A stretch of DNA of 64,000 bases from an uncultured delta proteobacterium. GTDB taxonomy: Bacteria > Desulfobacterota > Binatia > Binatales > Binataceae. Where the stretch lies: assembly GCA_963794325.1 (NCBI GenBank), contig CAWCDG010000003.1, forward strand, positions 352,001 through 416,000, read 5' to 3'. The notes under the pieces are model-generated. The model searched no databases and was not told the DNA's origin. It saw only the letters and a list, made by a program, of their open reading frames with translations. Positions 3,073 through 58,103 of the stretch are shown one piece after another. The translations under genes and the position numbers were made by a program. The stretch's first letter is position 1. Each line of letters begins with the position of its first letter.

Positions 3073-3093
3073 ATCAAGTGATTTCCCCTTCCC

Positions 3094-5468: not shown

Positions 5469-5483
5469 CTAATTCCTATGCCC

Positions 5484-5562
5484 GATCCCCTTCCCGCGAG
5501 GGAAGGGGTCTCCAACAATCCGGTTCCCCTTCCCACTAAGGGAAGGGGTTAGGGGTTAGGTT
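5484..5562. repeat. REP-like palindrome family A, two tandem units
   Basis: CCCCTTCCCGCGAGGGAAGGGG...ATCCGGTTCCCCTTCCCACTAAGGGAAGGGGTTAGGGGTTAGGTT. Confidence 0.9.
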
Positions 5563-5609
5563 CCTAAGCATCATTCGCAATCCCAACCGCATCGCATCTT
5601 TCGTTCCTA

Positions 5610-5778
5610 ACCTCTCCTTGTCCGAGGAGAGGTCGGCGAAAGCCGCGTAGCGGTGTCGCCGGGTGAGGTGCAACGCCAGACATTTCAGTCGATCCATACT
5701 CGATTCCGAAAGCCAGAAAGTGGCGCCGCCCCCGAGCACTGCACCTCTCTCTAACCCTCTCCTTGGACAAGGAGAGGG
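5610..5778. repeat. REP-like palindromes family D (two hairpin units)
   Basis: CCTCTCCTTGTCCGAGGAGAGG and CCCTCTCCTTGGACAAGGAGAGGG. Confidence 0.7.
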
Positions 5779-5798
5779 CACTGGACAAAGGTTTCTCC

Positions 5799-9275: not shown

Positions 9276-9378
9276 CGCATGATCTTAGAACGCCTCCACC
9301 CCCTTATCAACGCAGTCCCCCGATTGCATGCATCGCGAAGTCGATGGCGGGCACGGCGGCCCGCCCCCACTGGAGTTC

Positions 9379-9407
9379 TTGACACCCTATTCAAGGATTG
9401 GAATACT
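9379..9407 (+). promoter_or_regulatory. Putative sigma-70 promoter overlapped by an inverted repeat (candidate PadR operator)
   Basis: TTGACA-17 bp-AATACT; TATTC-N8-GAATA inverted repeat spans the spacer and -10. Confidence 0.55.
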
Positions 9408-9445
9408 CTAATTCCCCAGCACGAAAAGGAAGTCGAGGTGACGAC

Positions 9446-10813: not shown

Positions 10814-11481
10814 AGAAGGCGACACGCTCCGCGCGCGCAATCGGCGACCTGCGTGTTCCCACCAGGAAAGCGTCGCTTGATCTCGCGCTGCTCGGATTGA
10901 TCGCGGAAGTGCCCGGCGTGTCCGGCTACGACATCATGAAGATCTTCGATCTGTCGATGGCGCATTACTGGCATGCGCATCCGACACAGATCTATCCGAC
11001 CCTGGAGCGCATGGAGTCGCTCGGGCTGATCAAGAGCCGCAACGTCGTGCAGCGCAATCGCCCGAACAAGCGCCTGTACACGATCAGGCCCTCGGGCGAG
11101 AGATTGTTGATCGAATGGCTCGAAAGCGGGTTCGAGGGAATCAACCTGAAGCATCCGCCGTTGCTGCGATGCCGGTTCCTCGGAAATCTCGGACCCGACC
11201 GCGCGATCGCAGCGCTCGAGGAGGAGCGCGAGGCGTGGGCGCGGCATCTGAAGGTTTATCGGCAACTCGAGCAGGGCTATTTCGCGGGCGGGAAAAGCTA
11301 TCGCGACGTGAACGCGATGTTCTCGTGGTTCACGCTCAAGCGCGGGATCGATTGGATGGAGGAAAATATCGGATGGTGCGAGTGGGCGATCGCCGAGATC
11401 GAGCGGAATCGCGCACTGTTCCCAGCCGAGAATATGCGCACCCAGATGAAGCCGCCGATACGAGCAAAACAATCCGCTTGA
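10810..11481 (+). CDS. PadR-family transcriptional regulator
   Basis: ALLGLI...SGYDI...QIYPTL...RPNKRLYTI; ATGA overlap with the oxygenase stop. Confidence 0.9.
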   Translation: MKKATRSARAIGDLRVPTRKASLDLALLGLIAEVPGVSGYDIMKIFDLSMAHYWHAHPTQIYPTLERMESLGLIKSRNVVQRNRPNKRLYTIRPSGERLLIEWLESGFEGINLKHPPLLRCRFLGNLGPDRAIAALEEEREAWARHLKVYRQLEQGYFAGGKSYRDVNAMFSWFTLKRGIDWMEENIGWCEWAIAEIERNRALFPAENMRTQMKPPIRAKQSA

Positions 11482-21340: not shown

Positions 21341-22543
21341 ATGCCCGCACCGCTGGACGGAATCAAAGTACTCGACCTGACCAAGCTCGCTCCGGGACCG
21401 TTCTGCACCATGATCCTGGCCGACCTTGGCGCTGAGGTGATCAGGATCGAGGAGCCGGGACCTCCCACCGGAAGGCGCGCGCAGCAAGCAGGCGCAGCAG
21501 GCACGCGCGCTGGCGCCAATAACTTCAACAGCTCGCCGCACAACGCACTTGCGCGCAACAAGAAATCGATCGGGATCAATCTCAAGAGCGGGGCGGGCAA
21601 GGAAGTTTACAGTCGGCTGGCACAGCGTGCCGACGTGATCGTCGAGGAGTATCGGCCGGGCGTCGCCAAGCGGCTCGGCATCGACTACGAGAAACTCGCG
21701 TCGCGCAATCCACGGCTGATTTATTGCGCCATCACCGGCTTTGGACAGACCGGTCCGTATCGCGACCTGGTCGGCCACGACATCAACTACATTGCCACTG
21801 CCGGCGTGCTCTCGATGTTTGGACGCCCCGGCCAACCACCGACGATTCCGCACAACGTCGTCGCCGACTATGCCGGTGGCGGGATGCAGGGCGCGATCGG
21901 AGTGCTCGCGGCGCTGGTCGCGCGCAACCAGACTGGGCGTGGGCAATACGTCGATATCTCGATGATGGACGGCAGTCTCGCGCTGCTGGCGCAGGCGTTC
22001 TCGACGTTTTTCGCCAACGGCAAACTGCCCAGGCGCGGCGAGACGATAAACGACGGCGGGATTCCGAATTACAACGTCTATCTGTGCAAGGACGACAAAT
22101 ACATTACGATCGCCGCGATCGAGCCGTGGTTCTTCGCCAATCTTTGCCGCGCGCTCGGCCGCGAGGATTTTATTCCGCACGAGTACGACTCGAGCAAGCG
22201 TCCGGAAATCGCGCGGGTGTTCACCGAGACCTTCAGAACCAAAACGCGCGACGAATGGTTCGAGATTCTGAGCAAGAGCGATATCTGCGTCGGACGAATG
22301 CTCACGCTCGACGAAGTGCCGAACGATCCGCAAGTACAAGCGCGCAACATGATCGTCGAAGTCGAAGGCAACGGCGGCCGGAAGTTCAAACAGGTCGGCA
22401 TATCGCCGAAGTTCTCGGATACGCCAGGATCGATCAGGTCGCTCGCGCCGCAACTCGGGCAGCATACCGACGAAATCCTTGGCGAGCTCGGCTACAGCAA
22501 GGAAGAGCTCGATCGCTGGCGCGAGTCCGGCGCCATCAAGTAG
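21341..22543 (+). CDS. Family III CoA-transferase (CaiB/BaiF/AMACR-like)
   Basis: LAPGPFCTMILADLGAEVI, RNKKSI, GHDINY, VADY active-site Asp. Confidence 0.95.
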   Translation: MPAPLDGIKVLDLTKLAPGPFCTMILADLGAEVIRIEEPGPPTGRRAQQAGAAGTRAGANNFNSSPHNALARNKKSIGINLKSGAGKEVYSRLAQRADVIVEEYRPGVAKRLGIDYEKLASRNPRLIYCAITGFGQTGPYRDLVGHDINYIATAGVLSMFGRPGQPPTIPHNVVADYAGGGMQGAIGVLAALVARNQTGRGQYVDISMMDGSLALLAQAFSTFFANGKLPRRGETINDGGIPNYNVYLCKDDKYITIAAIEPWFFANLCRALGREDFIPHEYDSSKRPEIARVFTETFRTKTRDEWFEILSKSDICVGRMLTLDEVPNDPQVQARNMIVEVEGNGGRKFKQVGISPKFSDTPGSIRSLAPQLGQHTDEILGELGYSKEELDRWRESGAIK

Positions 22544-27548: not shown

Positions 27549-29069
27549 TTACGGCTCGGCGAAGAAGTTGTCGCGCACCTGAATGTGGTCCTCGATCGAG
27601 AAAATTCGCGCCACCAGGAAAATCTGGGTCTGCACCATCAGGCGATCAGCTTCGGTCGGCACGGTTCCCCATAAGATGATCGTGTCACCGTCCATTTTGA
27701 AGCGCACTGAGCTGTAGCCCTGCATGTCCAGCGCCCGGCGAAGCGCCATCTCCCGCGGCGTTGTGTGCGGCGGATCAGCCGGCTCACCCGGGACGGGCGG
27801 CGCAGGATTCGGCTCTGACGGCACCGATCCATAGTCGGGTCCGGTATCGCCGTCGGAAGGCTGCGGCTGCGACGAATGAAAAATCAGGTAGCCCATCAGG
27901 AAAAATCCGCCGACCACCAACGCCATCAGTCGCGCCGAATGCCGCCGGCGCCGCCGCTCGTGAAAAATCGGCCCCGGAAAATCGTGCGGCGCGGCAACGT
28001 CGTCGAGCATGATCGTCTGCGCCTCGGGCGTCGCGCCGCGATCTGTCCCCGACAATCGTCCGGTCACGTCGGCGGCGCAGAACGAGCAGAAGTTCGAATC
28101 CACCGGGATGCTTCGGCCGCATCGCGGGCACTCAGTGTCGATCGCGTTGCTCAGCATCGTCGGCGCCGACGCGTGCTGCTCTTTGGACTTGACGCCGCTC
28201 AGGGGCAGCTTGAGTTGTGGACGCGCGGCCCGGCCGGAGGAATTGCGCTGCGGCGCAGCCATCGGCGTCCCTGACTTGATCGCCATCAGCCGCTGTCTGA
28301 ATTCCACGGCGTCAGCAACGCGCAAAGCCACGTCGTACTTGAGGGCCTGGTCGACCACTTCGCATAGCGCGGGAGTGACCTCAGGACATAGCGATCGCAA
28401 CGGAGGAAAACTGAACGGCGGCTCGAGCGCGGGGTCGCGGCCCGACAGCGCATGATGCATCGTGGCGCCCAGTGCATACAGGTCCGATCGGAACTCGACC
28501 TTGCCGCGATATTGTTCCGGCGGCGCGTAGCCTTGCGTGCCGATCATCGTCGCGTTGCTGAGCGGCTGGAACAGTCGCGCGATTCCAAAGTCGATGAGCT
28601 TGACCTGCTCCGACGGCGTTAGCATCACGTTCGACGGCTTCAGGTCGCGATAGATCACCGGCGGTTCCAGGTTGTGCAGATACTCGAGCGTGTCGAGAAC
28701 CTGCAGCGCCACGTCGATAACCTCGCTCTCGGGAAGCTGGCCGCCGGCGCTCTGGAGTTTCTGCTCCAGCGTTATCCCGCTGATGTACTCCATGACGAGA
28801 TAGTGATGGTTCTCATCGCTGAAGCGATCGAACACGCGCGGGATATGTTCGTTGCTGAGTTGCGCCAGCATGTCGGCTTCGCGCTGAAACGCCGCGACCG
28901 CCTGCTTCTGAGTTTCGGGGCTGGTGAAAGTATCGACCATCTCGGCCAGCGCACACTCGCGCGCGGCGAGCCGCAAGTCCTCGGCCAGATAGACGAGCTT
29001 CATCCCGCCGCCGCCAAGCGGCTTCATCACGCGGTAACGTCCGCCAATGATCGTGTTGGGCGCAATCAT
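27549..29069 (-). CDS. Membrane-anchored Ser/Thr kinase with WNK-like Lys placement, Zn ribbon, TM and BON-like domain
   Basis: GGGGMK, CALAE, FQREA, YRDLKPSN, DFG, GTQGYAPPE, SDLYALG; CPRCG...CSFC; TM after an RRRRRH stretch; GDTIILWGTV...IEDHIQV BON-like tail. Confidence 0.93.
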   Translation of the reverse strand: MIAPNTIIGGRYRVMKPLGGGGMKLVYLAEDLRLAARECALAEMVDTFTSPETQKQAVAAFQREADMLAQLSNEHIPRVFDRFSDENHHYLVMEYISGITLEQKLQSAGGQLPESEVIDVALQVLDTLEYLHNLEPPVIYRDLKPSNVMLTPSEQVKLIDFGIARLFQPLSNATMIGTQGYAPPEQYRGKVEFRSDLYALGATMHHALSGRDPALEPPFSFPPLRSLCPEVTPALCEVVDQALKYDVALRVADAVEFRQRLMAIKSGTPMAAPQRNSSGRAARPQLKLPLSGVKSKEQHASAPTMLSNAIDTECPRCGRSIPVDSNFCSFCAADVTGRLSGTDRGATPEAQTIMLDDVAAPHDFPGPIFHERRRRRHSARLMALVVGGFFLMGYLIFHSSQPQPSDGDTGPDYGSVPSEPNPAPPVPGEPADPPHTTPREMALRRALDMQGYSSVRFKMDGDTIILWGTVPTEADRLMVQTQIFLVARIFSIEDHIQVRDNFFAEP

Positions 29070-29128
29070 GCCTAAAATCAGAATCTAACCATTATCTGAT
29101 TTTATAACAGCCCGCGCGCTTCCCGGAT

Positions 29129-29470
29129 TCATCGCGCCAGCATGTCTTCCCGGGGTGTTCCGGAGAAGGCCGCATTAGCCCCACATATTATATGGATGAG
29201 GATGCCAAATGGCGGCCCCATCCCGTACGCTATCGACACGAAAAAGAACCACATGATGCCCTTGAAGGGCTTGCCGCGGTAGATGTGCCCGACGCCCGGA
29301 ACGATGCTGAGCACGAGCGCGATCACCGGGTTGAATCCCGAACCTCTGTGCAACAGCGATAAACGTGTCGTCGGCGCGCCGCACGATTTGCAATAGCTCG
29401 CCTCGGCGACGACGATCGGCTGGCCGCATCGCGAACAGAACCTCGGTTTTTCGAAATCAGCGTCAGCCAC
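29129..29470 (-). CDS. Zinc-ribbon membrane protein (TM2-like)
   Basis: FCSRCG...YCKSCG; ALVLSIVPGVGHIYRG; GTG start overlapping the upstream stop. Confidence 0.8.
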   Translation of the reverse strand: MADADFEKPRFCSRCGQPIVVAEASYCKSCGAPTTRLSLLHRGSGFNPVIALVLSIVPGVGHIYRGKPFKGIMWFFFVSIAYGMGPPFGILIHIICGANAAFSGTPREDMLAR

Positions 29471-30794
29471 GGAAGACAAACTGCGCGTCGCCGAAGCGTA
29501 CAGCCTCGCCGTCGTTCACCTTGGTTGGCTCGGTCACGCGCCGATTACCGACGAACGTCCCGTTCTGACTGTTCAGGTCGCGCACCACAAAGGCGCCGTT
29601 GGAATTCTCGATACTCGCGTGATGCCTCGAGATCGAGGAATGGCTGACCACGATTTCATTGTCCAGCGCGCGCCCGATGTGGGTAACCGCGCCGGGACGC
29701 ACGGGATACGCCTGCCCGGACGCGTCGATCAGGCTCGGCCCATCAACTTTGGCATTTGCTCCCGCCAGCCGTGTCGCGATATGCGCAGGATTCACCGCGT
29801 CGGATGCGAGCGAGGCCTGCTGGCGCGCGGGCGACGACGACCCGCGCAGATGGAACTTCATTTCGTAACCGCCGATGTTGACCCGATCGCCGTCGTGCAG
29901 ATCTACAGTCTCGATTCGCTTGCCGTTGACGAACGTACCGTCCTGCACCGCAAGATTCCTGATGACGTAATCAGCGCCGCGCCGCTCGATTACCGCGTGC
30001 CGTTGCTGCACCGACGGGTCGCCGAACAAGCCGACCGGGTTTTCTTCGGCGCGCCCAATCGTCGCGCGCGCTCCTTCGATTCGGTACTGGCGTCCGCGCA
30101 AGCGTCCCTGCTCGACGGTGACCCACGCGGCCTTGGTCATCTCTTGTACCAGCCCGATGAACAGTCCGATCGCAAGGCCGGTTATCGCCTCGCCAAAAAA
30201 TCGCGACGCCAGCCCGCCGCCGACGACCGATCCGATCAAATCAAATGCGATTCCGCCGACCGCTCCGCCAACCAGTCCACCGACCGCTCCCTTGGGCACG
30301 TTTTCCATCGTGAGCGTTGCCAATCCCACACCGGCGCCAACCAGCGCGCCATCGATGGCCCATCCCAACAGTCTTGCGATTATGAGAACGACGATCGATC
30401 CCGAAACCAGCTCACCATTCGGACTGAACCCGACGCCGCCAACTTGAAGGACCAGGTTGAAGACGTAGTTCCCGAGGTAAGTGGAGAGCAGCGACAGCAG
30501 CGCGCAAATACCGAAGCCGCGGAGGAATCGACGCTTGGCCTCCGGCGTCACGCGAACCTCTGAGGTGTCCACCGCCGTGATGAACGCGCCGATCGCTCCG
30601 GCCGCGATCGCCGCCGAGATGTAGTACGCGATCAAATCCCCGGTCGTCTGCGCCTCGCCCAGATGCGAATTGTGCGAAGCCAGTTCGACCGGGAGCCATC
30701 CGATCGCGCCACCCACCAGGCCCGCGAGAGCCTTGAAGGTCAATTCGCGCCGGTTCAGAGAATCGCTTTTCAGTAGAGCTAGAGGTGAGTCCAC
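29463..30794 (-). CDS. Multi-TM protein with two C-terminal FHA domains
   Basis: Gly-rich TM helices; IGR...RHA...GTFVNG and IGR...ISRHHA...SQNGTFV. Confidence 0.9.
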   Translation of the reverse strand: MDSPLALLKSDSLNRRELTFKALAGLVGGAIGWLPVELASHNSHLGEAQTTGDLIAYYISAAIAAGAIGAFITAVDTSEVRVTPEAKRRFLRGFGICALLSLLSTYLGNYVFNLVLQVGGVGFSPNGELVSGSIVVLIIARLLGWAIDGALVGAGVGLATLTMENVPKGAVGGLVGGAVGGIAFDLIGSVVGGGLASRFFGEAITGLAIGLFIGLVQEMTKAAWVTVEQGRLRGRQYRIEGARATIGRAEENPVGLFGDPSVQQRHAVIERRGADYVIRNLAVQDGTFVNGKRIETVDLHDGDRVNIGGYEMKFHLRGSSSPARQQASLASDAVNPAHIATRLAGANAKVDGPSLIDASGQAYPVRPGAVTHIGRALDNEIVVSHSSISRHHASIENSNGAFVVRDLNSQNGTFVGNRRVTEPTKVNDGEAVRFGDAQFVFRG

Positions 30795-30948
30795 GACGCC
30801 CTCGGCAGCAGCATCCAGGTGAAACAGTTACCAATATAATAGCCCGCATCCGCGCGCTGGAAAACGCCGTCGCTGAACAGCATGCAATCAGCGGGCTGCG
30901 GGGCTCATATTGCTCCCCCCGAACAAAAACAGGCATCATCGCGAGGCG

Positions 30949-32190
30949 ATGAGCATCGAAAATCTGGTTACTGAAAAGTTCGGCCCGCTGCAGGGCGTGA
31001 AGATCATCTCGACCGGAACCCTGATTGCGCAGCCGTTCGCCGCCGAACTGGCCGCCGAGATGGGCGCGGAGGTGATCCAAATCGAGCGGCCCGGAATTGG
31101 CGACGTCGGATGGCGCAATATCGGCATCCGGCTCAAGACCAGGGACGGCAAGTCCGCCGTTGCGACGACCTGGATCCAGGAACGCCGCAACGTGTTTTGC
31201 ATCTCGCTCGATCTGTCGAAGCCGCGCGGCCGCGAAATCTTTTTGAAACTCGTCGCGCGTGCCGACATCTGGATGGAAAGTTCGAGGCCGGGCACCTATC
31301 CGAAATGGAAGCTTGACGACGCGTCGGTTTGGAAGGTCAATCCGAAACTGGTGATCACTCACGTCTCGGGATTCGGACAAAGCGGCGATCCTGACTACGT
31401 CCATCGCGCGTCGTACGACGTGGTTGGGCAGGCGGTCGGCGGCACGATGATCCAGACCGGTTTTCCCGATCCGATTCCGCCGACGCGCGCCGCGCCGTGG
31501 ACCGGCGACTATATTACCGCGCTTTTCACGATGTGGTCGTCGCTCGCCGCGCTGACGTACGCGCGCACCACCGGCAAGGGTCAGTCGATCGACGTCGCGC
31601 AGTACGAAGCGATTCATAAAACGCTGGGCGGAACGATGGTTGAGTACTTCCAGAATGGCGTCGTGCGCGAGCGATCGGGCAATCGCGCGCAGGGCTTTCA
31701 GCCACTCGATTCTTTTCAGGCAATTGACGGATGGGTCGTGATGGGCGCGATAGGCGACGTGTACGCGCGGATGCTCGGCGTGATCGGGCTGGATCAGACC
31801 GACCCGAAATGGGAAACGGCGCGCACTCAGCTCGAATCGATCGAAGGGATCGAATTCGACGCGATCCTGCGCGGATGGATTTCCGAGCGCACTGTGAAAG
31901 ACGTCGTGACCGCGATGGCAGCCGCCAACGTGCCGTGCTCGCCGATTATGACGAGCAAGGACATCGCCGAGGACCCGCAATACCGCGCGCGCGGAATGCA
32001 CGTCGAATGGGAAGACGGGCAAGTGGGCAAGGTGAAGGGCATCGGCGTCGCGCCAAAGTTCTCGCGCACCCCGGGAAAAATCGTACGCGGATCCGTACCG
32101 CTCGGCCACGACAACGATCGCATCTATCGCGAGATGCTCGGCGTCAGCGCGGACGAACTCGAATCGCTCCGCCGCGAAAAGGTGATCTAA
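30949..32190 (+). CDS. Family III CoA-transferase (CaiB/BaiF-like)
   Basis: FGPLQGVKI...IAQPFAAE...GAEVIQIE, SGFGQSG, GDY. Confidence 0.92.
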   Translation: MSIENLVTEKFGPLQGVKIISTGTLIAQPFAAELAAEMGAEVIQIERPGIGDVGWRNIGIRLKTRDGKSAVATTWIQERRNVFCISLDLSKPRGREIFLKLVARADIWMESSRPGTYPKWKLDDASVWKVNPKLVITHVSGFGQSGDPDYVHRASYDVVGQAVGGTMIQTGFPDPIPPTRAAPWTGDYITALFTMWSSLAALTYARTTGKGQSIDVAQYEAIHKTLGGTMVEYFQNGVVRERSGNRAQGFQPLDSFQAIDGWVVMGAIGDVYARMLGVIGLDQTDPKWETARTQLESIEGIEFDAILRGWISERTVKDVVTAMAAANVPCSPIMTSKDIAEDPQYRARGMHVEWEDGQVGKVKGIGVAPKFSRTPGKIVRGSVPLGHDNDRIYREMLGVSADELESLRREKVI

Positions 32191-33014
32191 CTCGCGACTC
32201 TCGTCAAGAAGGTCTCGACCGATTTCCCGAATGCCTTCTCGTCCGGATAGCGGCCCAAGTCCAAAATGAAATAGGTCGCGCCTACTTCCTGCTCGGCGGC
32301 GACCTTTGCACGTGCCGCGCCGATATCGTCGAGCTTGATTCCGCGCCGCACGACAATCTCGGGAGCGTCGCGTCCAGCGGCGCGCGCACGTGAATTCAAT
32401 TCTTCAACTTTTGCTTTAAGTTCTGCCGCGGGCAGCATCGGATGCCAGCCGTCGCCGAACTTCACCACGCGATTCATCGCAGCCGGCCCGCTGCCTCCCA
32501 CCCAGATAGGCGGGCGGCGGGGCCTTGGCAGGAACATGAACGACGGGAACTTCACCAACGGGCCTGTGTAGGCGCCCGGCTCGTCAGCGCTGAACAGATG
32601 GTGAATCACGCTCAGCGTCTCATTGGTAATCGCGCCGCGCCGGTGAATGTCGACGCCGAGCGCGTCGAACTCCGGCTTCATCCATCCGACGCCGACGCCC
32701 AGGATCATTCGCTCGCCCGACAGTTCCTGGATCGTCGCGACCTGCTTCGCGGTCAACACGGCGGGCCGATAAGGAACGACCAGCACTGAAACGCCAAGCC
32801 GGATTTTCTCGGTCGCCCCGGCGATGAACGCCAGTGTCGCTAGCACGTCGAGATAACGTCCGCCACTGCCTTCGGTCTGGTCGACAGGGATGCACAAATG
32901 ATCCGATACAAAGAGCGCGTCGAAGCCGGCTTGCTCAGCGATTCGTGTGCATGCGCGAATCGTCGCGCGATTGGATTGCGGACCCATGTTGCGGATTGCG
33001 ACGCCAAATTTCAT
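32187..33014 (-). CDS. LLM-class (probably F420-dependent) oxidoreductase
   Basis: AEQAGFD.LFVSDH, AKQVATI, LGVGVGW..EF, PPIWVGG, GDGW. Confidence 0.88.
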   Translation of the reverse strand: MKFGVAIRNMGPQSNRATIRACTRIAEQAGFDALFVSDHLCIPVDQTEGSGGRYLDVLATLAFIAGATEKIRLGVSVLVVPYRPAVLTAKQVATIQELSGERMILGVGVGWMKPEFDALGVDIHRRGAITNETLSVIHHLFSADEPGAYTGPLVKFPSFMFLPRPRRPPIWVGGSGPAAMNRVVKFGDGWHPMLPAAELKAKVEELNSRARAAGRDAPEIVVRRGIKLDDIGAARAKVAAEQEVGATYFILDLGRYPDEKAFGKSVETFLTRVAS

Positions 33015-33109
33015 CGCTGACTCCTCCAGCTACATCACGACACTGAAAAGAAGACTGGCAAGCGCGCGCGCATCCAGTCAAACTACTCGGCCACTGGAGG
33101 CGACAACGC

Positions 33110-33742
33110 GTGGGCCGTCCATCCGCGAAGCAACGCAAGCCTTATAACCTCGACGCGATCCTCGACGTGGCGGTGCGCGTGTTTCGCGAGCGCGGCTACG
33201 ACGGCAGCACGCTCGACGACGTCGCGCGCGCCGCGGGAATCACCAAGGCCAGCATCTACTATCACGTCCGCAGCAAGGAAGAGCTGCTGGCGCGCGGCGT
33301 CGGCCGCGCGCTCGACGCGCTGTTCGCGGTGCTCGACGAGCGGCCCGCAAAGCGCGGCCGCGCGGCGGCGCGTCTCAGGTACATCGTGCACCGCACCATC
33401 GAGATCACCGTTGAGCAATTGCCCGAAGTGGCTCTCCTGCTGCGTGTGCGCGGCAATACCCCGGTCGAGCGGCGAATCATGGAACGGCGCCGCGCGTTTG
33501 ACCATCTGATCGCGAGGCTGATGCGCAACGCGCAGCGACAGGGCGATTTGCGCGCCGATATCGAGCCGCGGCTGGCGACGCGTCTGCTCTTCGGAATGCT
33601 TAACTCGATCACTGAATGGTATCGGACCGGCGGCGACCTCGATGCGCCGGAAGTGGCCGAGGCAGTTTTCCGGATTGCGTTCGAGGGAATGGAGCAGGGC
33701 GCTCAACGCCGCATTTTGACAAATCAACCAAATGGTAGGTAA
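33110..33742 (+). CDS. TetR-family regulator, PaaR-like
   Basis: HTH (LDDVARAAGITKASIYYHVRSKEELL); LLLRVRGNT and RLLFGMLNSITEWY resemble actinobacterial PaaR; GGAGG RBS. Confidence 0.88.
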   Translation: MGRPSAKQRKPYNLDAILDVAVRVFRERGYDGSTLDDVARAAGITKASIYYHVRSKEELLARGVGRALDALFAVLDERPAKRGRAAARLRYIVHRTIEITVEQLPEVALLLRVRGNTPVERRIMERRRAFDHLIARLMRNAQRQGDLRADIEPRLATRLLFGMLNSITEWYRTGGDLDAPEVAEAVFRIAFEGMEQGAQRRILTNQPNGR

Positions 33743-33745
33743 AAT
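33716..33745 (+). promoter_or_regulatory. Putative sigma-70 promoter with TetR-type operator inside the tetR 3' end
   Basis: TTGACA (33716)-18 bp-TAAAAT (33740); ACC-N8-GGT in the spacer. Confidence 0.55.
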
Positions 33746-33760
33746 AGATTCAGGTGTCAT

Positions 33761-34789
33761 ATGCCGATGAGTGAATTCGAAATCCCCGCAGGCGGCCTGG
33801 TCGAGGCGCCAGCCGTCGCCCAGCCGAATATTTTTCCGATCGAATGGCGATGCGAGACGCCTAAGCTCGCCGAGATTTACGAGCGCGCCAAGCGCGAGGG
33901 CTTCAATCCCGCGGATATCAACTGGAGCGAGCTTTTGCCCGAGGCATGGAGCGACGACCAGAAGGTCGCGATCATGTACTGGTGGGCGCTCCTTTCCAAC
34001 TTCGACTCGTCGGGGCCGGCGGTGTTCGCCCGCGCGACGATTCATGCGTGGGAGATGCACGAGGAAGATCCGGTCCGCAAATGTTTCTTCTCGATTACCC
34101 GCGACGAGACCAATCACGAGGAAACCTGCCAGCGCGTTATTCAGCGCCTGGTCCCGAACGGCCCGCAGGGCTTCACTCCCACCAGCGAACTGCAGCGCGT
34201 CGCGCTGAACAATATCGGCTGGCTCTATCATAACGGCGGCCGCTACTGGACCGGTTACAACCGCGCGATCGATCGCTATCCGCTCGCCGTCATCTTCACC
34301 TCGTTCATGATGGGCGAAGTGGCGTCGTCAACGCTGTTCCACGGCATGGCGCATGCCACGACTCATCCGGTGTTCCGCGAAATCTTCACCAAGATCGGTC
34401 GCGACGAAGCACGTCATTTGCAAATCTGCATCAACCTGCTCGAGAAGGAGTGGCCCGGCCTCACCGACGAGCACAAGACCTTCATCACCAAGCAGCTTCG
34501 CGCGGGCTTCGTGTTCCTCTCGATGGTGCTATGGGAGCCGCCCGCACAGTTCTGGGATTTGCCCGGTTACTTTCTGCATAACCACAGGATTCTGTTGCGC
34601 ACCGCGCGCGAGGCGGGACTCGGAATCCTCACCTACGAGCAACAAGCCGACAATTGGCGGCTCGCGATCGCGCGCGTCCGCAAGCTGGTCGAGCGATGGG
34701 ACATCCAGTTCCCCGCGATTCCGGAACTTGATATTGAAGGAGTTGACGTCGGCGATATCACCGCCGAAGACATCATCCCCGTGTTCTAG
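33761..34789 (+). CDS. Ferritin-like di-iron protein of unknown function
   Basis: Two D-E-x-x-H motifs (RDETNH, RDEARH) plus helix carboxylates (NFD, MGE). Confidence 0.8.
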   Translation: MPMSEFEIPAGGLVEAPAVAQPNIFPIEWRCETPKLAEIYERAKREGFNPADINWSELLPEAWSDDQKVAIMYWWALLSNFDSSGPAVFARATIHAWEMHEEDPVRKCFFSITRDETNHEETCQRVIQRLVPNGPQGFTPTSELQRVALNNIGWLYHNGGRYWTGYNRAIDRYPLAVIFTSFMMGEVASSTLFHGMAHATTHPVFREIFTKIGRDEARHLQICINLLEKEWPGLTDEHKTFITKQLRAGFVFLSMVLWEPPAQFWDLPGYFLHNHRILLRTAREAGLGILTYEQQADNWRLAIARVRKLVERWDIQFPAIPELDIEGVDVGDITAEDIIPVF

Positions 34790-34810
34790 ATTGATTGTGA
34801 GGCCACGAAT

Positions 34811-35584
34811 ATGAGCGTCGATTTGTCGGTCGAAAGCGGTCTCGCGGAAATCGTTCTCAACCGTCCCGACAAGATGAACGCGTTGAATGACGCGATGGTC
34901 GCCGATCTCAACGGCGCTCTCGATCGCGCGGCGTCGCAAGGTGTGCGCGCCATGATGATTCGCGGCGAGGGGCCGGCATTCTGCGCAGGCCGCGATCTCG
35001 CGGACGCGCATCCAGGCGACGAAGACGCCGAAGCGATAATCGAGACAAGCTTCAATCCGCTGATGAAGCGAATCGTCGCGTTCCCCGCGCCGACCTTCGC
35101 CGCGGTTCAAGGCGCGTGCCTGGGCGCGGGCCTCGGCCTCGCACTCGGATGCGACGTCGTCTACGTCGCCGACGACGCGAAGATCGGATCGCCGTTCGCG
35201 CGAATCGGCGCAGTGCTGGACTCTGGCGGCCATTCGTTTTTCGTCTCGCGGTTGGGAGCGCATCGCGCGCTCGAGCTGATCTACACCGGACGATTGCTGT
35301 CCGGCATCGAAGCCGCGCAGCTCGGCCTTGTCAATCGCAGCATGACCAAGGATTCGCTGGTCGCGGAGACGCGCAAGATCGCGTCGCAGGTTGCGCAAGG
35401 TCCCACCGCAGCGTTCATGATGTCCAAGCATCTGGTGCGCAGGATCGATGAAGAGGCGATGGGCCTGTTCGCAGTTCTGAAGCTTGAAGCTCAAGCCCAA
35501 GGCGCGGCGGGAAGGACCGCGGACTACAAGGAAGGCATCACGGCTTTCCAACAAAAGCGCGCCGCGAAGTTCGTAGGTAAGTAG
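34811..35584 (+). CDS. Enoyl-CoA hydratase/isomerase, PaaG-like
   Basis: LNRPDKMNA, AFCAGRDL, GAGLGLALGCD, IGAVLDSGG (single catalytic Asp rather than two Glu). Confidence 0.9.
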   Translation: MSVDLSVESGLAEIVLNRPDKMNALNDAMVADLNGALDRAASQGVRAMMIRGEGPAFCAGRDLADAHPGDEDAEAIIETSFNPLMKRIVAFPAPTFAAVQGACLGAGLGLALGCDVVYVADDAKIGSPFARIGAVLDSGGHSFFVSRLGAHRALELIYTGRLLSGIEAAQLGLVNRSMTKDSLVAETRKIASQVAQGPTAAFMMSKHLVRRIDEEAMGLFAVLKLEAQAQGAAGRTADYKEGITAFQQKRAAKFVGK

Positions 35585-35608: not shown

Positions 35609-35866
35609 ATGCAAGAAAAGATCAAAGTTGGATTCCAGGCTTTCGTTTCCGATGGTGGCGAGGAGTTCGGCGCGGTTCGCCAGGTTGCGCCGAACGGACG
35701 GCCCGAGCTGGTTATCTACGTCGAGAACGCCGGCGACTTCACGGTGCCGATCAGCGCCGTCGAGGCAGTGCATTCGGAGAAGGTCGTGCTGAACTGCGCC
35801 AAGCTCGATCGCAAGCTGCGGCATGCGATCGGCCACGCGCACGACAGTGAAAAGCGCGGCGCTTAG
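35609..35866 (+). CDS. Small hypothetical protein (possibly PRC-barrel-like)
   Basis: GGAG RBS, beta-rich pattern (FTVPISAVEAV..EKVVL). Confidence 0.7.
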   Translation: MQEKIKVGFQAFVSDGGEEFGAVRQVAPNGRPELVIYVENAGDFTVPISAVEAVHSEKVVLNCAKLDRKLRHAIGHAHDSEKRGA

Positions 35867-37251
35867 CCGGAGACCTGGGATAGAAGATACACAAGTCCCT
35901 CCGACATTGTTGGGTGCGCGAAGATCGCATCGCGCAACGCTGTATAAGGTAGCCGCCCAACCATCGCAGTCTGAACCGCGGCCATCAGCTCGCTCGCCTC
36001 GATACCGAACGCGGTGAAGCCGATGATTTGGTCGCTGTCTTTGCCGATCAGCATCTTCATGAAGCCGCGCGGTTCGGCAATCGTGTGCGTGCGAAGCACA
36101 TTCTCCATCGGCAATTTTGCGATACGGTATTCGATCTTGTCGCGCTTCGCCTCGGACTCGTTGCGCCCGACCCGCGCCAGTTCCGGATCGGTGAACATGC
36201 AGAACGGCACCAGGCGATCCTTCGTGGTTCGATTGCCGCCCTTCAAGTTGTCACGCACCACGCGGAAGTCGTGGTACGCGACGTGTGTGAATTGAGGACT
36301 ACCCGCGCAATCGCCCATCGCCCAAACATTGGCAGCGGTCGTCTCCAGCCGCTCGTTGACCTTGATAAAACCTCGCTCGTCGAGTTCGACGCCGGCTTGC
36401 TCCAATCCGATTCCTTTCGTATTCGGCGTGCGTCCCGTCGCCACGAGAAGATCGGTGCCTTCGATGGTCCGTTCGCCGGGACCGTCTTTTGCGTGAACCC
36501 GAACCTCCTTGCCTGATTGTCCCTCCACCCGGCAGACTTGAGTTCCGAGCAATACCTCGATTCCCTCGTCGCGAAACAGTTCAAGGAGAGCAGCCCCTAC
36601 GTCGGGATCTTCCCGGTCGGCGAGTTGCGCGCCTTGTTCAATCACGGTCACATCCGATCCGAACCGCCGTATCGCCTGCGCCAGTTCAAGCCCGATGTAA
36701 CCTCCGCCGACCACGATGAGGTGACGTGGCAGATGGTCTAGGTCGAGCACCTCGATATGCGTCATCGGGTTAGCTGCGGCGAGTCCGGGAACATTGGGTA
36801 TCGTCGAGCGCGATCCCAGATCCAGGAACACACGTTCGCCAACGACGCGTCGAGTGCCGCCATCGTTGAGCGCGACTTCAACGGTTTTCGGAGCGACGAA
36901 GCGTGCTTCACCCATGATCAGTTCTATTCCGGCGTCCGCGGTACGCTGCGCGTGGAACTGATGCTCCGCTTCGACCATCTTGCGTTTGCGCTGCTGAACG
37001 CCCGCCATGTTGATTCGGAGTTGATCCATCTCGAGTCCGAATTCCGCGCCGCGCCGCGCAATTGACGCCACTCTTGCGGAGTAGGCCACGTTCTTGCTCG
37101 GCAGGCACGCGATATTCGGGCACGAGCCGCCGAGCCATCTCCGCTCGACCATCGCCGTGCGATGGCCCTCACCGGCCATAGTCCAGGCTGTCCACTTGCC
37201 GGCTTCTCCGCTTCCTAGAACCAGAATTTGGTACTTTTCTGCGTCAGGCAT
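35863..37251 (-). CDS. Pyridine nucleotide-disulfide oxidoreductase (RclA / lipoamide dehydrogenase-like)
   Basis: GSGEAG, GGSCPNIACLPSK, GGGYIGLE, ATGR.PN, GD, HPTMSE. Confidence 0.93.
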   Translation of the reverse strand: MPDAEKYQILVLGSGEAGKWTAWTMAGEGHRTAMVERRWLGGSCPNIACLPSKNVAYSARVASIARRGAEFGLEMDQLRINMAGVQQRKRKMVEAEHQFHAQRTADAGIELIMGEARFVAPKTVEVALNDGGTRRVVGERVFLDLGSRSTIPNVPGLAAANPMTHIEVLDLDHLPRHLIVVGGGYIGLELAQAIRRFGSDVTVIEQGAQLADREDPDVGAALLELFRDEGIEVLLGTQVCRVEGQSGKEVRVHAKDGPGERTIEGTDLLVATGRTPNTKGIGLEQAGVELDERGFIKVNERLETTAANVWAMGDCAGSPQFTHVAYHDFRVVRDNLKGGNRTTKDRLVPFCMFTDPELARVGRNESEAKRDKIEYRIAKLPMENVLRTHTIAEPRGFMKMLIGKDSDQIIGFTAFGIEASELMAAVQTAMVGRLPYTALRDAIFAHPTMSEGLVYLLSQVSG

Positions 37252-37417: not shown

Positions 37418-38533
37418 TTAGCGGGCGGCGGCTGATGACGGAATCGGAACCGGATCCTTGAGCGGCTCCGTGTTCCACTTCTTGAGTTCGGGCAGCACAT
37501 ACTTCGCGAAGCACTTGATGCTGCGTTCGGCGTCTTCGTACGGCATTCCGCCGAAACTGAAATTGAAGAACACGCCGTTGGCGTCGATCGTGTCGCGGAC
37601 GAACGCGCACTTCTCGATCACCTGGTCGGGCGTGCCCCACGGCATCAGCATCGCGAAGTCGCGCGCGGCAACCTCCGGACCGGTCTTCTTTATGAACTTG
37701 CTTACGTTGCTGTAGAACTCGTAGCCCTTCTTGGTGCCGAAATCCGGCGACGTCATCTCGTAGTGCTTCATGACGGTGTGGTAGTTGGCGGCGATCCATT
37801 TCATCGCGAGCTCTTCGGCGCGGTCCTTGTTTTCATCGACGACGCAGAAGCCGCCGGAAAGCGGCTTGGGTATTGGCGCCGCCCCGTTAACCTCACGCCA
37901 GACCTTGTGATAGACCTCGAAATCCTTCTTGACGGCGTCCCACGGTTTTTGCGGAATCACGAGCAGGCCGACCCCAAGCTTCGCCATTATCGGCATCGAT
38001 TCGGGCGAGACTGCGGCGGCGTAGGTGCGGCCCTTGAATGAGCGCGCGGGGCGCGGACGAATCTCGCGGCGCGGCTGGCGGGTGAATTTGCCGCCTTCCA
38101 TGTAGCCGTTTTCGAGCGCGTTCAAAACCAGCTCAGCGTACTCGACAAACAGGTTGCGGCCTTCGTTCTGATCGATACGGAAGCCGTCGTATTCGATTCG
38201 CGCGAGGCCGCGACCGAGGCCGAGGATCACGCGGCCGTTGGAGACGTGATCGAGCAGCGCGACCTGCTCGGCGACGCGGATGGGATCGTGCCACGGCAGG
38301 ACGACGACGCCCGAGCCGAGCTTTATGTGCGTGGTGCGGCCCGCCATGTACGAGAGGAATTGCAGCACGTCGGGGCACATCGTGTAGTCGTCGAAGTGAT
38401 GCTCGACGCCCCAGATAGAATCGAAGCCCAGCGGCTCGGCCATTTCGGCGAGGCGCAACTCGTTGCGATAAACCTCGGCGTCGGGAAGTGCGTTATCGGG
38501 ATTCTGGAATACTGCGCCATAGCCAACGTGCAT
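37418..38533 (-). CDS. LLM-class flavin-dependent oxidoreductase (luciferase-like)
   Basis: AEPLGFDSIWGVEHHF, PIRVAEQ, LGLGRG; GAGGAGG RBS before ATG 38533. Confidence 0.92.
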   Translation of the reverse strand: MHVGYGAVFQNPDNALPDAEVYRNELRLAEMAEPLGFDSIWGVEHHFDDYTMCPDVLQFLSYMAGRTTHIKLGSGVVVLPWHDPIRVAEQVALLDHVSNGRVILGLGRGLARIEYDGFRIDQNEGRNLFVEYAELVLNALENGYMEGGKFTRQPRREIRPRPARSFKGRTYAAAVSPESMPIMAKLGVGLLVIPQKPWDAVKKDFEVYHKVWREVNGAAPIPKPLSGGFCVVDENKDRAEELAMKWIAANYHTVMKHYEMTSPDFGTKKGYEFYSNVSKFIKKTGPEVAARDFAMLMPWGTPDQVIEKCAFVRDTIDANGVFFNFSFGGMPYEDAERSIKCFAKYVLPELKKWNTEPLKDPVPIPSSAAAR

Positions 38534-38644
38534 GATAAGAACCTCCTCGATCGAATCGCCGAGCTTAGGACAGTCATAGATCGGGCAAGTATAGAAGTAC
38601 AGGTCGTCGCGATCGGCTTTTCCCAGTTTCGCGATCGTGCTCAA

Positions 38645-39742
38645 ATGCGCGGTGTGCCCAACGCCGACGCGACCAGAACCGCGAGCAACCCTCAACCTTC
38701 CACCCCGCAAGCTGTGGTGATGGGGCCGACGGCGGCGTCGCTGTTCCTGGTCGTTACGATTGATCCGCGCCCTGAAAGCGTGACAGCAGTCCGCTCGCTC
38801 TGCGCCGACTTAGCCAACCTGCTGCGCGCAGTTGGGTTCCGCGATACCGCGGCAAAGCTTACCTGCGTGATGAGCTTTGGCTCCGCGGCGTGGGATCGGC
38901 TGTTCGGAGAGCCCCGCCCGGCGGAACTCCATCCGTTCCGGGAGATCAGCGCCGGATCGCGGCACGCAGTATCGACGCCGGGCGACGTGCTTTTCCACAT
39001 CCGCGCCGAGCGGACGGATCTCTGTTTCGAACTCGCCACGCAGATCATGTCCGCACTCGGCGACTCGGTTACCGTCGAAGACGAAGTCCACGCCTTCCGC
39101 TATTTTGACAATCGCGATCTGCTCGGCTTCGTGGATGGCACCGAGAACCCGGTCGATAACGAGGCGCTCGAGGCCGCGCTGGTCGGCGAAGACGATCCAG
39201 CCTTTGCCGGCGGCAGTTACGTGATCGTTCAGAAGTATCTGCACGATCTCATGGGATGGAACGCGTTGCAGACCGAAGTCCAGGAGCGGATCATCGGCCG
39301 CACCAAGGTTTCGGATATCGAATTGGACGACACCGTCAAACCGACCTCCGCGCACAACGCGCTTAACACCATCGTTGAAGATGGGGTCGAGAAGAAGATC
39401 TTCCGCGCCAACGGGATCTTCGGCCGCCCGGGACAGACCGAGTTCGGTACGTACTTCATCGGTTACGCGCGCTCGCCGCGGACGATGGAGCAAATGCTCC
39501 AGAACATGTTCGTGGGACAGCCCCCGGGCAATTACGATCGAATACTGGACTTCAGCCGCGCCGTCACCGGCAGTTTGTTCTTCGCGCCGCCGGCATCGTT
39601 CCTCGACAGCGTAACGCCCACCGGCGAAGTGGCAGCGGCCGCACCCGCCGCCAATCAGACCGGCTCTTCGCCAGATACCCCGCTTGCCAGCGACGGCTCG
39701 CTCGGCATCGGCTCACTGAAAGGAGAATCGCGCGATGAATAA
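38645..39742 (+). CDS. dyp: Dye-decolorizing peroxidase (DyP) with encapsulin targeting peptide
   Basis: GFVDGTEN, QKYLHD, IGRTK, SAH; C-terminal DGSLGIGSLKG after an Ala/Pro linker; start 38645 or 38654. Confidence 0.95.
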   Translation: MRGVPNADATRTASNPQPSTPQAVVMGPTAASLFLVVTIDPRPESVTAVRSLCADLANLLRAVGFRDTAAKLTCVMSFGSAAWDRLFGEPRPAELHPFREISAGSRHAVSTPGDVLFHIRAERTDLCFELATQIMSALGDSVTVEDEVHAFRYFDNRDLLGFVDGTENPVDNEALEAALVGEDDPAFAGGSYVIVQKYLHDLMGWNALQTEVQERIIGRTKVSDIELDDTVKPTSAHNALNTIVEDGVEKKIFRANGIFGRPGQTEFGTYFIGYARSPRTMEQMLQNMFVGQPPGNYDRILDFSRAVTGSLFFAPPASFLDSVTPTGEVAAAAPAANQTGSSPDTPLASDGSLGIGSLKGESRDE

Positions 39743-40544
39743 TCTGCACCGCGAGCTCGCCCCCATCTCGGACGGCGCGTGGGCTCAAATCGAAGAAGAA
39801 GCGCAGCGCACCCTGAAACGCTACCTGGCAGGGCGTCGGGTCGTCGACGTGAAAGGTCCGGGCGGCGTCATGCTGTCTGCGGTCGGTACCGGGCATTTGC
39901 GCGATCTGGCGGCTCCCGGCGACGGCATCATTGCGCGGCAACGTCAGGTCAAGGCGCTGGTCGAACTCCGCGCTCGATTCCAACTCGATCGGCAGGCGAT
40001 CGACGACGTCGATCGCGGCGCAAATGATGCGGACTGGCAGCCGTTGAAAGATGCGGCGAAGCGGATAGCGTTCACCGAAGACCGCGCGATCTTCGACGGG
40101 TACGCCGCCGCCGGAATCGAAGGCATTCGGCAAGGGACCAGCAACAAAATCGCGGCGCTGCCCATAGACCCGGCTCATTATCCCGACGCTGTCGCCGAGG
40201 CGCTGAGCCAGCTGCGCCTCGCCGGCGTCAACGGGCCGTATTCGGTGGTGATGGGCGCCGACGCGTACACGGCGCTGAGCGAGGCCAGCGATCACGGCTA
40301 TCCTGTAATCGAGCACATACAGCGGCTGGTCAACGACGAAATCATTTTCGCTTCCGCGCTCGCTGGAGCGTTCGTATTGACGACGCGCGGCGGCGACTTC
40401 GAACTTCATCTCGGCCAGGACGTCTCGATCGGCTATGCGAGCCACGACGATAAGCACGTCAGCCTGTACCTGCAGGAATCGATGACCTTCTTGCTGTTGA
40501 CGGCTGAAGCCTCGGTCGCGCTCAAGCCCGCATCGCGGAAATAG
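39735..40544 (+). CDS. Family 1 encapsulin shell protein
   Basis: MNNLHRELAPIS..AW.QI, RRVVDV.GP, EDRAIFDG, RGGDFELHLGQD.SIGY; overlaps the DyP stop. Confidence 0.96.
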   Translation: MNNLHRELAPISDGAWAQIEEEAQRTLKRYLAGRRVVDVKGPGGVMLSAVGTGHLRDLAAPGDGIIARQRQVKALVELRARFQLDRQAIDDVDRGANDADWQPLKDAAKRIAFTEDRAIFDGYAAAGIEGIRQGTSNKIAALPIDPAHYPDAVAEALSQLRLAGVNGPYSVVMGADAYTALSEASDHGYPVIEHIQRLVNDEIIFASALAGAFVLTTRGGDFELHLGQDVSIGYASHDDKHVSLYLQESMTFLLLTAEASVALKPASRK

Positions 40545-57556: not shown

Positions 57557-57838
57557 ATGCGCACGACCAAAAAATCCACTGATGCTGCGGTCACTACAGC
57601 CGCCGCACGCAAGAACTTTTCTGATTTGATCAACCGCGTTGCCTACGGGAAAGACCGCGTCGTTCTGACGCGCCGCAACAAGCCATTAGCCGCAGTAGTA
57701 CCGATCGAAGATATCGCGCTGATCGAAGAAATCGAGGACCGGGAAGATCTAAAGGCAGCGCGCGCCGCGCTTCGCGAAGCGAAACGTAAGGGCACGATCC
57801 CGTGGGCGCGCATCAAGAAGGAGCTGAACCTCCCCTGA
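57557..57838 (+). CDS. Phd/YefM-family antitoxin
   Basis: ARKNFSDLINRV...RVVLTRRNKPLAAVVP; acidic C-terminal half. Confidence 0.92.
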   Translation: MRTTKKSTDAAVTTAAARKNFSDLINRVAYGKDRVVLTRRNKPLAAVVPIEDIALIEEIEDREDLKAARAALREAKRKGTIPWARIKKELNLP

Positions 57839-57845
57839 CCTCGCG

Positions 57846-58103
57846 ATGGCGTACGCGATCGAGTTCGTACCAAGCGCGAAGCGCGAGTTAAAAAAGCTTC
57901 CACGAGAAGTTCAGCTCAAGCTAAATCAACGTATCGATTCGCTTTCGATCGAGCCCCGTCCGCGCGGCTCCAAGAAGCTGAAAGGGGCGACTGAACTGTC
58001 GCGAATCCGCGTTGGCGACTACCGAGTCGTCTACGAAGTACGGGACAAGCTTCTCGTCGTCTTAGTGGTTCGCGTCGCGCACCGTCGCGAGGTCTATCGT
58101 TGA
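57846..58103 (+). CDS. relE: RelE-family toxin
   Basis: AKRELKKLP...PRPRGSKKLKG...RIRVGDYRVVY...HRREVYR. Confidence 0.93.
   Translation: MAYAIEFVPSAKRELKKLPREVQLKLNQRIDSLSIEPRPRGSKKLKGATELSRIRVGDYRVVYEVRDKLLVVLVVRVAHRREVYR

Follow-up and report, generated by a model that had tools for sequence, protein, structure and literature searches.

For the aerobic degradation of phenylacetate and benzoate via coenzyme A (CoA)-ester epoxides, either PaaABCDE or BoxAB is regarded as necessary. Here we analyse a three-gene unit at positions 33110-35584 of a 64,000-nucleotide stretch of DNA from an uncultured member of the Binataceae (contig CAWCDG010000003.1 of assembly GCA_963794325.1, positions 352,001 to 416,000; the whole stretch is called the window below). 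In this unit, a gene for a TetR-family regulator is followed by one for a ferritin-like protein, here called FER, and one for a crotonase. The original prediction, made from the letters of the sequence, had read the unit as a candidate minimal aryl-CoA epoxidation module, with FER as a third, single-subunit type of aryl-CoA oxygenase. We find that the unit most likely consists of a PaaR-type repressor gene and two genes for enzymes of aromatic acyl-CoA catabolism, and that FER probably acts in a catabolism of this kind governed by PaaR; its role as a third aryl-CoA epoxidase is plausible, though we would not call it probable.

A 2026 survey of 6,536 genomes proposed PaaA together with PaaC as genomic markers of the pathway; its text, as distinct from its supplementary tables with epoxidase-less cluster configurations, mentions no ferritin-like protein, the word "ferritin" being absent from it (PMC13186573). 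For Thermus thermophilus, the PaaR-controlled operon is given as paaR-paaA-paaB-paaC-paaD-paaZ (PMC6651687, Table 5). Our literature search returned no paper that links an R2lox-like or ferritin-like protein to paa clusters, none that describes paa genes in Binatota or Eremiobacterota, and none that reports a paa or box genomic context for R2lox. All functional statements made below on the unit rest on homology and gene order, from which we infer its substrate, reaction, electron donor and regulation.

Results

The three-gene unit

Three open reading frames (ORFs) lie end to end on the + strand, at the positions first assigned to them: the TetR regulator (33110-33742, 210 amino acids (aa), Pfam TetR_N and TetR_C_24), FER (33761-34789, 342 aa) and the crotonase (34811-35584, 257 aa, ECH_1 181 bits), separated by gaps of 18 and 21 nucleotides (nt), respectively. 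The GC content of the unit is approximately 61%, with high third-position GC, and neighbouring genes are alike in this respect. The closest relatives of the locus are labelled Candidatus Binatus (99% protein identity).

A phmmer search of the PDB with the TetR protein returned 2iai, SCO3833 of Streptomyces coelicolor, as best match (E 1.9e-60, 207 bits, residues 7-176; about 60% identity as judged by eye). The next-best match scored 74.5 bits, and fatty-acid regulators are among these lower-scoring solved TetRs. SCO3833 is identified as PaaR, which represses the phenylacetic acid operon, in a 2026 preprint about regulators in Streptomyces (bioRxiv 10.64898/2026.06.06.730586). Because the match to SCO3833 reaches 207 bits and SCO3833 is called PaaR, the label "PaaR-like" is well founded by sequence, and the proposed resemblance to actinobacterial PaaR is borne out: the TetR protein is a close relative of PaaR and a putative paa-type repressor.

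The best NCBIfam model for the crotonase is PaaG (TIGR02280), and the protein is not a PaaG equivalog, since it scores 190.2 bits against a cut-off of 345.15. In an alignment with Escherichia coli PaaG (4fzw_C), the Asp of its GAVLDSGG motif stands opposite the Asp of "GLIPDCGG", which we take to be the catalytic residue of PaaG; the single PaaG-type Asp noted in the original prediction is therefore real. Both hydratase Glu positions are occupied by other residues, G and F (alignments with the 5zai hydratase and 4fzw_C). By these features the crotonase is of the isomerase type, of the PaaG kind, and a probable enoyl-CoA or epoxide isomerase.

FER is a distant member of the R2/R2lox lineage

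The ligand set of FER consists of D82, E116xxH119, E186 and E216xxH219, in agreement with the predicted pattern D...ExxH...E...ExxH. In an alignment of 32 family members with identities as low as 22%, D215 never varies, conservation of at least 90% is seen at E98, D115, E116, H119, E186, R218 and H219, and the column of the first ligand holds D or E. FER combines a complete conserved R2-type ligand set with the lack of a radical Tyr, Cys123 being the family consensus as well. The C-terminal tail (last 25 residues, FPAIPELDIEGVDVGDI..EDIIPVF) is conserved across phyla.

An AlphaFold model built on the family alignment is all-helical with a mean predicted local distance difference test (pLDDT) score of 90.5. 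Foldseek comparison of this model with the PDB gave 29 matches at E <= 0.001, all of them R2lox or the R2/NrdF subunit of class I ribonucleotide reductase (RNR), with a best E-value of 1.7e-4, template modelling (TM) scores of 0.39-0.56 and 13-17% identity. Consistent with this, the FER family profile matched R2lox best among PDB sequences (E 4e-7 to 5e-5, spanning profile positions 32-245), followed by RNR R2 (5e-4), acyl-acyl carrier protein (ACP) desaturase (2e-3) and AurF (0.38), and no PaaA, PaaC or BoxB chain appeared at E <= 10. R2lox was reached by the family profile only, a single-sequence search of the PDB with FER yielding nothing meaningful. Direct comparisons with the known epoxidases were likewise negative: PF05138 (PaaA_PaaC) was unmatched at E <= 0.1 and hhalign against E. 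coli PaaA gave 1.35% probability, while TIGR03225 (BoxB) was unmatched and hhalign against the BoxB of the Binataceae locus L053 (see below) gave 0.7%. The original prediction had held that FER looks unlike PaaA, PaaC and BoxB and had called for comparison with PaaA, BoxB, AurF and R2lox; R2lox is nearest on both the profile and the fold, AurF is distant by profile, and PaaA and BoxB show no relation. FER is, as judged from these alignments and the model, a distant member of the R2/R2lox lineage.

No curated family among the Pfam and NCBIfam models covers FER, which stays below all cut-offs of both collections; its sub-threshold ferritin-like matches (AurF, PF11583, 25.3 bits against 29.6; Rubrerythrin; COQ7) all fall on the second ExxH helix. 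We found 641 homologues, and the 120 listed are 67-98% identical and labelled as Binataceae, Eremiobacterota, Mycobacteriales, Actinomycetota and Dehalococcoidia. Their source names are "hypothetical" or "rubrerythrin", many with a precomputed PF11583 (PF11583.15) label, and ESM Atlas clusters for relatives bear only "ferritin-like domain-containing protein"; a distant family member used as query matched just 3 proteins, all without a name. The family is small: among 1.84 billion representatives it forms only 234 clusters at 50% identity, with many fragments and with subfamilies at 26-47% identity. Fused forms were absent among proteins of 600-2000 aa, which is weak evidence. Given these 641 homologues and 513 genomic relatives, the conservation of FER excludes chance.

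Context of FER in Binatia-like loci

A scan of genome contigs found 513 relatives, and 80 of these loci were analysed, each covering up to 8 kb on either side of FER (about 17 kb per locus). Based on FER identity and record labels, L001-L066 were classified as Binatia-like. The crotonase gene lies directly 3' of FER in 61 of the 64 such loci with enough flank, the TetR gene directly 5' in 48 of 63, and genes for the LLM-class oxidoreductase and the CoA-transferase lie upstream of FER in most.

One Binataceae locus, L053, carries TetR, FER and crotonase genes followed by BoxC (TIGR03222, 748 bits against a cut-off of 712) and BoxB (TIGR03225, 685 against 499). BoxB and BoxC were confined to this locus (1 of 81 sequences examined), and its BoxB was the single match to PF05138 in approximately 250 ORFs scanned.

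Context of FER in other phyla

The remaining loci, L067-L080, comprise 11 from Eremiobacterota/Vulcanimicrobiota and 3 from Actinomycetota (one of the Mycobacteriales). A TetR gene whose product is 52-57% identical adjoins FER in 7 of these 14 loci, and another 2 have it no more than 3.7 kb away. One or more of the paa markers PaaZ, PaaN and PaaI were present in 13 of the 14. PaaZ (TIGR02278) scored 989-1029 bits (cut-off 563) in L072, L074, L076 and L077, and was further represented by a MaoC fragment in L070 and by the 5' part of the gene, cut by the contig end, in L080. PaaN (TIGR02288) scored 762-816 bits (cut-off 579) in L070, L073, L078 and L079, and L075 has a copy that is 57% identical. 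PaaI (TIGR02286) reached 129-146 bits (cut-off 119) in all four loci tested; with E. coli PaaI as tblastn query a match was found in 10 of the 14 loci, making it the commonest paa neighbour. A PaaK-like ligase was detected below cut-off in 4 loci. Homologues of FER therefore do occur in paa or box surroundings, with PaaZ, PaaN, PaaI and the PaaK-like ligase in Eremiobacterota and Actinomycetota and with BoxC/BoxB in one member of the Binataceae.

In two Actinomycetota loci PaaZ comes directly after FER. In L074, TetR (2980-3582), FER (approximately 3651-4673) and PaaZ (4682-6712) follow one another in operon-like order with gaps of approximately 68 and 8 nt, and a crotonase gene (62% identical to that of the window) lies 3.5 kb further on. 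In L080, a 4HPPD gene (429 bits against 277) and a gene for a homogentisate-dioxygenase-like cupin precede FER, the latter by a 4-nt gap, and PaaZ follows FER directly. The Mycobacteriales locus, L069, has a thiolase gene and a methylmalonyl-CoA-mutase-like gene without any paa gene.

The canonical epoxidase was searched for in the same loci and in the window. No match to E. coli PaaA, B, C, D, E, X or Y was obtained by tblastn in any of the 80 loci. In the window, PF05138 was unmatched among the 59 ORF translations scanned and E. coli PaaA, B, C, D and E gave no tblastn match at E <= 1e-4, confirming the reported absence of paaABCE. No further member of a paa or box pathway was found in the 64 kb (BoxA was not searched by a model of its own), and no nrd gene was found near FER in the window scans.

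The Eremiobacterota loci have further recurrent neighbours. L067, L068, L070-L073 and L075-L079 contain an orphan gene resembling the alpha subunit of 2-oxoacid dehydrogenase E1 (E1_dh; TIGR03181 approximately 300-310 bits against 411), which is divergent from TetR-FER, or from FER where TetR is missing, and no E1 beta or E2 gene adjoins it; the L076 copy has the same orientation as PaaZ and overlaps it. A gene for an ammonium transporter (Ammonium_transp, approximately 300 bits) directly follows FER in L067, L068, L070, L072 and L077, and in several Eremiobacterota loci it sits between FER and the PaaK-like, PaaN and PaaI genes. L068 additionally carries a separate AurF-family di-iron gene (2421-3368; PF11583 60.4 bits, above cut-off) 4.6 kb upstream of FER. 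Genes for APH-family phosphotransferases near the FER cluster were noted in two unrelated loci, L053 (13203-14273) and L074 (9038-9781), at 34% identity.

Candidate operator and promoter

An imperfect palindrome, GACTGG-N15-CCAGTC (33053-33079), was read from the sequence of the divergent promoter region between the LLM and TetR genes and is a candidate operator. It is the sole ACTGG-N13-19-CCAGT site of the window and is conserved 5' of the TetR gene in loci of the Binatus genus; its right arm is lost in more distant Binataceae. It is unlike both the consensus of the Thermus PaaR site, AACnAACGTTnGTT (PMC6651687), and the putative Streptomyces site AACGA-N4-TCGGT. Among the dyads of Eremiobacterota, a GC-rich hairpin, ACGCCG-N10-CGGCGT, occurs most often; it is located 5' of TetR in 3 loci and 3' of FER in one, is also unlike the published PaaR sites and could equally be a terminator-like element. 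We found no palindrome that the promoter of TetR-FER has in common with those of paa genes in other loci. A promoter-like site, TTGACA-18-TAAAAT (33716-33745, + strand, 11 of 12 consensus positions), sits within TetR at its 3' end, 16 nt ahead of the FER start; it is a consensus pattern match only, with 2 such sites in the region against 0.7 expected.

Other features of the window

Directly upstream of the unit, as originally described, are the genes for a family III CoA-transferase (30910-32190, + strand; CoA_transf_3 314.6 bits) and for an F420-dependent LLM-class oxidoreductase (32187-33014, - strand; Bac_luciferase; TIGR03619 218.6 bits against 166.9) that is divergent from the TetR gene. 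The CoA-transferase, a possible route to an acyl-CoA substrate, is under every NCBIfam equivalog cut-off (top model CaiB, 280 against 413). A second family III CoA-transferase (21341-22543, 374 bits) lies further away, and a homologue of its neighbourhood is found directly upstream of FER in L063. Downstream of the crotonase, an ORF of 85 aa (35609-35866, + strand) of unassigned family had no match in Pfam and NCBIfam scans and is conserved in relatives: 26 Binatus-like loci have it by tblastn (64-96% identity), usually directly after the crotonase and sometimes moved or inverted.

Genes for a DyP-type peroxidase and, directly after it, a family 1 encapsulin (Linocin_M18, 323 bits) occupy 38246-40544, a pair confined to some Binatus loci. 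The listed DyP ORF begins 155 residues before the domain and overlaps an LLM gene on the opposite strand, so that its true start is probably later. With this pair 3 kb downstream of the unit, FER was considered as encapsulin cargo (encapsulin ferritin models, 15-17 bits against 90-125); the idea was rejected because the match amounts to one ExxH helix, the pair is absent from most loci, and the neighbours differ outside Binatia.

Upstream on the - strand (27549-30794) is a group of genes that encode a zinc-ribbon Ser/Thr kinase, a zinc-ribbon/TM2 protein and a double-FHA protein; across Binataceae, the group keeps its synteny with the FER region. The window further contains a carotenoid-oxygenase-like gene (RPE65, 484 bits) between two PadR regulators, with a fatty-acid hydroxylase-family gene (8745-11481), a Phd/YefM antitoxin and ParE toxin pair forming a type II toxin-antitoxin system (57557-58103), and a soluble acyl-ACP-desaturase-like di-iron gene (FA_desaturase_2; 62336-63130).

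Discussion

A possible third class of aryl-CoA ring oxygenase

The reading that we favour, tentatively, is that FER carries out an O2-dependent oxygenation of the ring of an aryl-CoA and that the product is passed to the PaaG-like isomerase and to PaaZ or PaaN; this appears to us a reasonable possibility short of a likely one. In its most far-reaching form, to which we give slightly less weight, FER would represent a third class of aryl-CoA ring oxygenase that evolved independently. Such a dimetal enzyme, encoded by one gene and descended from the R2/R2lox lineage, would do the job of the five-component PaaABCDE or of BoxAB in Binatia, Eremiobacterota and some Actinomycetota, drawing on a general electron donor. 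An aromatic acid would first be converted to its CoA ester, in the window through the family III CoA-transferase and in other phyla through a PaaK-like ligase, and the ester would release the PaaR-type repressor. FER, as an O2-activating enzyme with two metals (Fe/Fe or Mn/Fe) and of R2/R2lox descent, would then use electrons supplied by a general donor of the cell to reduce O2 at the dimetal site, and would epoxidise or hydroxylate the ring. The PaaG-like crotonase would isomerise the oxygenated product, and PaaZ or PaaN, encoded beside FER in other phyla, would open the ring.

Speaking for this reading are the likeness of the TetR protein to PaaR and the retained TetR-FER adjacency, the paa markers in 13 of the 14 loci from other phyla, the gene orders of L074 and L080, the lack of PaaABCDE matches in the 80 loci and the window, the R2-type ligand set of FER without a radical Tyr, and the retained pairing of FER with a crotonase of PaaG-like catalytic pattern. 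Binatia contribute to the support through PaaR and the PaaG-like crotonase, and one of their loci adds its box genes. Because the 11 loci from Eremiobacterota share synteny, they amount to about one evolutionary observation, which lowers their weight; independent support thus comes from about four lineages, namely Binatia, Eremiobacterota and two Actinomycetota loci.

Several further findings weigh against the proposed ring oxygenase. PaaZ, PaaN, PaaI and a PaaK-like ligase are missing from all 66 Binatia-like loci, including the window, and since PaaZ, PaaN and PaaI are absent the module of the window lacks a ring-opening step. The conserved neighbours of FER include no reductase; a Pyr_redox_2 gene lies at 35863-37251, and just 5 of the 66 loci have it. 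In L053, FER is no stand-in for a missing epoxidase, because BoxB and BoxC adjoin it, and L080 has homogentisate genes, whose pathway does without CoA esters. The lower-pathway genes paaF, paaH and paaJ are missing from the 80 loci as well, and because of this and of the short loci paaABCDE could equally lie elsewhere in the genomes. Finally, the nearest relative of FER, R2lox, is described as having no established function, substrate or catalytic turnover (PMC9314684).

The aromatic acyl-CoA context assigned by the original prediction stands, and neither of the findings named there as refuting it was obtained: homologues do have paa or box neighbours, and FER has no clear match to a characterised non-epoxidase family. 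The term "minimal module" overstates the window, because no ring-opening gene is near, no reductase is conserved and BoxB lies beside FER in L053. That homologues may replace paaABCE in paa clusters, a check called for in the original prediction, is favoured by the lack of PaaABCDE matches in all 80 loci, and is weakened by L053 with its BoxB and by loci of only about 17 kb.

Alternative functions

An alternative that we regard as unlikely, and yet as the strongest of those considered, is an accessory role for FER within the PaaR regulon. As an oxidase, it would act on a side product of the epoxide pathways or on an intermediate that they have in common, with the crotonase as an ordinary 3,4-dehydroadipyl-CoA isomerase serving a step common to the paa and box routes. 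It would account for the coexistence of FER with a canonical epoxidase in L053, where both BoxB and BoxC exceed their equivalog cut-offs, and for the missing reductase partner. The succession of 4HPPD, homogentisate-dioxygenase-like cupin and FER genes in L080 points the same way, as does the prevalence among the paa neighbours of PaaI, a hydroxyphenylacetyl-CoA thioesterase by its NCBIfam name. Examples of such reactions, which are conjecture and to that extent count against this alternative, would be the salvage towards homogentisate of hydroxyphenylacetate or its CoA ester, arising from rearrangement of the epoxide, or the oxidation of a pathway aldehyde. An accessory role also fits less well with the gene orders TetR-FER-PaaZ (L074) and FER-PaaZ (L080), which set FER at the place of the epoxidase in the Thermus operon, and with the failure to find PaaABCDE in any of the loci.

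It is improbable that FER acts on aliphatic chains, as is suspected for R2lox, in the form of an O2-dependent hydroxylase or desaturase of fatty acids or acyl-CoA controlled by a FadR-like TetR and accompanied by an ordinary enoyl-CoA isomerase, with the paa neighbours reflecting mere synteny. R2lox co-purifies with C16/C18 hydroxy fatty acids (PMC9314684), the best NCBIfam model of the TetR protein is Bacillus FadR (67 bits against a cut-off of 200), L069 combines a thiolase and a methylmalonyl-CoA-mutase-like gene with the lack of paa genes, and in L057 a generic acyl-CoA ligase gene lies upstream of FER. Against this stand the 207 bits of the TetR protein with the PaaR SCO3833, compared to at most 75 bits with any other solved TetR, the occurrence of paa or box markers with FER in Eremiobacterota, in two separate Actinomycetota loci and in one Binataceae locus, and the loss from FER of the R2lox cross-link residues.

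Very improbable is a non-catalytic FER, i.e. a metal-storing, metal-delivering or O2/redox-sensing ferritin-like protein co-transcribed with PaaR, as the sub-threshold rubrerythrin and encapsulin-associated ferritin matches and the "rubrerythrin" label of some sources might suggest, since those matches cover the second ExxH helix only (15-20 bits, far under cut-offs), the fold and N-terminal motif are those of the 300-aa R2/R2lox enzyme scaffold and not of a 24-mer ferritin, and homologues from different phyla, among those listed, are still 67-98% identical along all 340 aa, C-terminal tail included.

Implications

If an unrelated single-gene oxidase replaces the epoxidase, the pathway would be overlooked in surveys of aromatic-degradation potential in soil phyla, Binatia and Eremiobacterota among them, and it could be assembled from far fewer components. 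The third-class reading, if true, would also provide the first physiological context for an R2lox-like protein. For metalloenzyme research, the FER family offers a sister of R2lox with a defined pathway context and a regulator, and hence testable substrates. Should FER prove to be an accessory oxidase instead, it would still be a new and conserved member of the PaaR regulon.

Comparison with known systems

By profile and fold, the nearest solved relatives of FER are the R2lox proteins (PDB 4hr0, 6qrz, 7qbk and 3ee4), with Foldseek TM scores of 0.5-0.56. Both are about 300-340 aa long and share an N-terminal "LYE(R/K)AK..WNP.D" motif and the ligand order (D/E), ExxH, E, ExxH. The (D)ExxH motifs of FER are in register with DEAKH and DE(G/S)RH of R2lox, and D82 stands opposite R2lox E69, the first ligand of the window protein being Asp. 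The two differ at the positions of the Tyr-Val ether cross-link of R2lox, which we take to be V72 and Y162 (residue numbers that appear in PDB titles). FER G85 aligns with Val72 of Geobacillus R2lox, and no Tyr occurs in residues 177-185 before E186, where the alignment may be off by one; for these two reasons FER is not a typical R2lox. With class I RNR R2/NrdF, FER shares the fold and the ligand scaffold (Foldseek E 3.5e-4 and weaker, profile 5e-4). The radical Tyr of E. coli R2 presumably lies four residues after the His of the first ExxH, and FER is not an R2, because it has Cys123 at this position, four residues after H119. R2 binds R1 through its C-terminal tail, and the same idea has been raised for R2lox, whose tail, a feature shared with FER, is suspected of binding a partner (PMC9314684).

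The N-oxygenases AurF and CmlI (PF11583) resemble FER in being single-subunit di-iron enzymes that act on aromatic substrates and have no dedicated reductase gene. PF11583 is the best Pfam match of FER, but a match below the cut-off that covers residues 176-266 only.

In function, the proposed pair of FER and crotonase can be likened to BoxAB and BoxC, a di-iron aryl-CoA epoxidase (benzoyl-CoA 2,3-epoxidase) and a crotonase-fold enzyme that cleaves its product; BoxB differs from FER in being a PF05138 member of 466 aa. The phenylacetyl-CoA 1,2-epoxidase PaaABC(D)E and FER have no detectable homology, and FER is a single gene, with counterparts of PaaB, C, D and E absent nearby by tblastn in the 80 loci and the window. 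Both would nevertheless be ferritin-superfamily dimetal oxygenases under PaaR control, with products handled by PaaG and PaaZ. This correspondence is most direct between the Thermus paa operon (PMC6651687) and the Actinomycetota locus L074, which have the same frame, with FER in the place where paaABCD stand.

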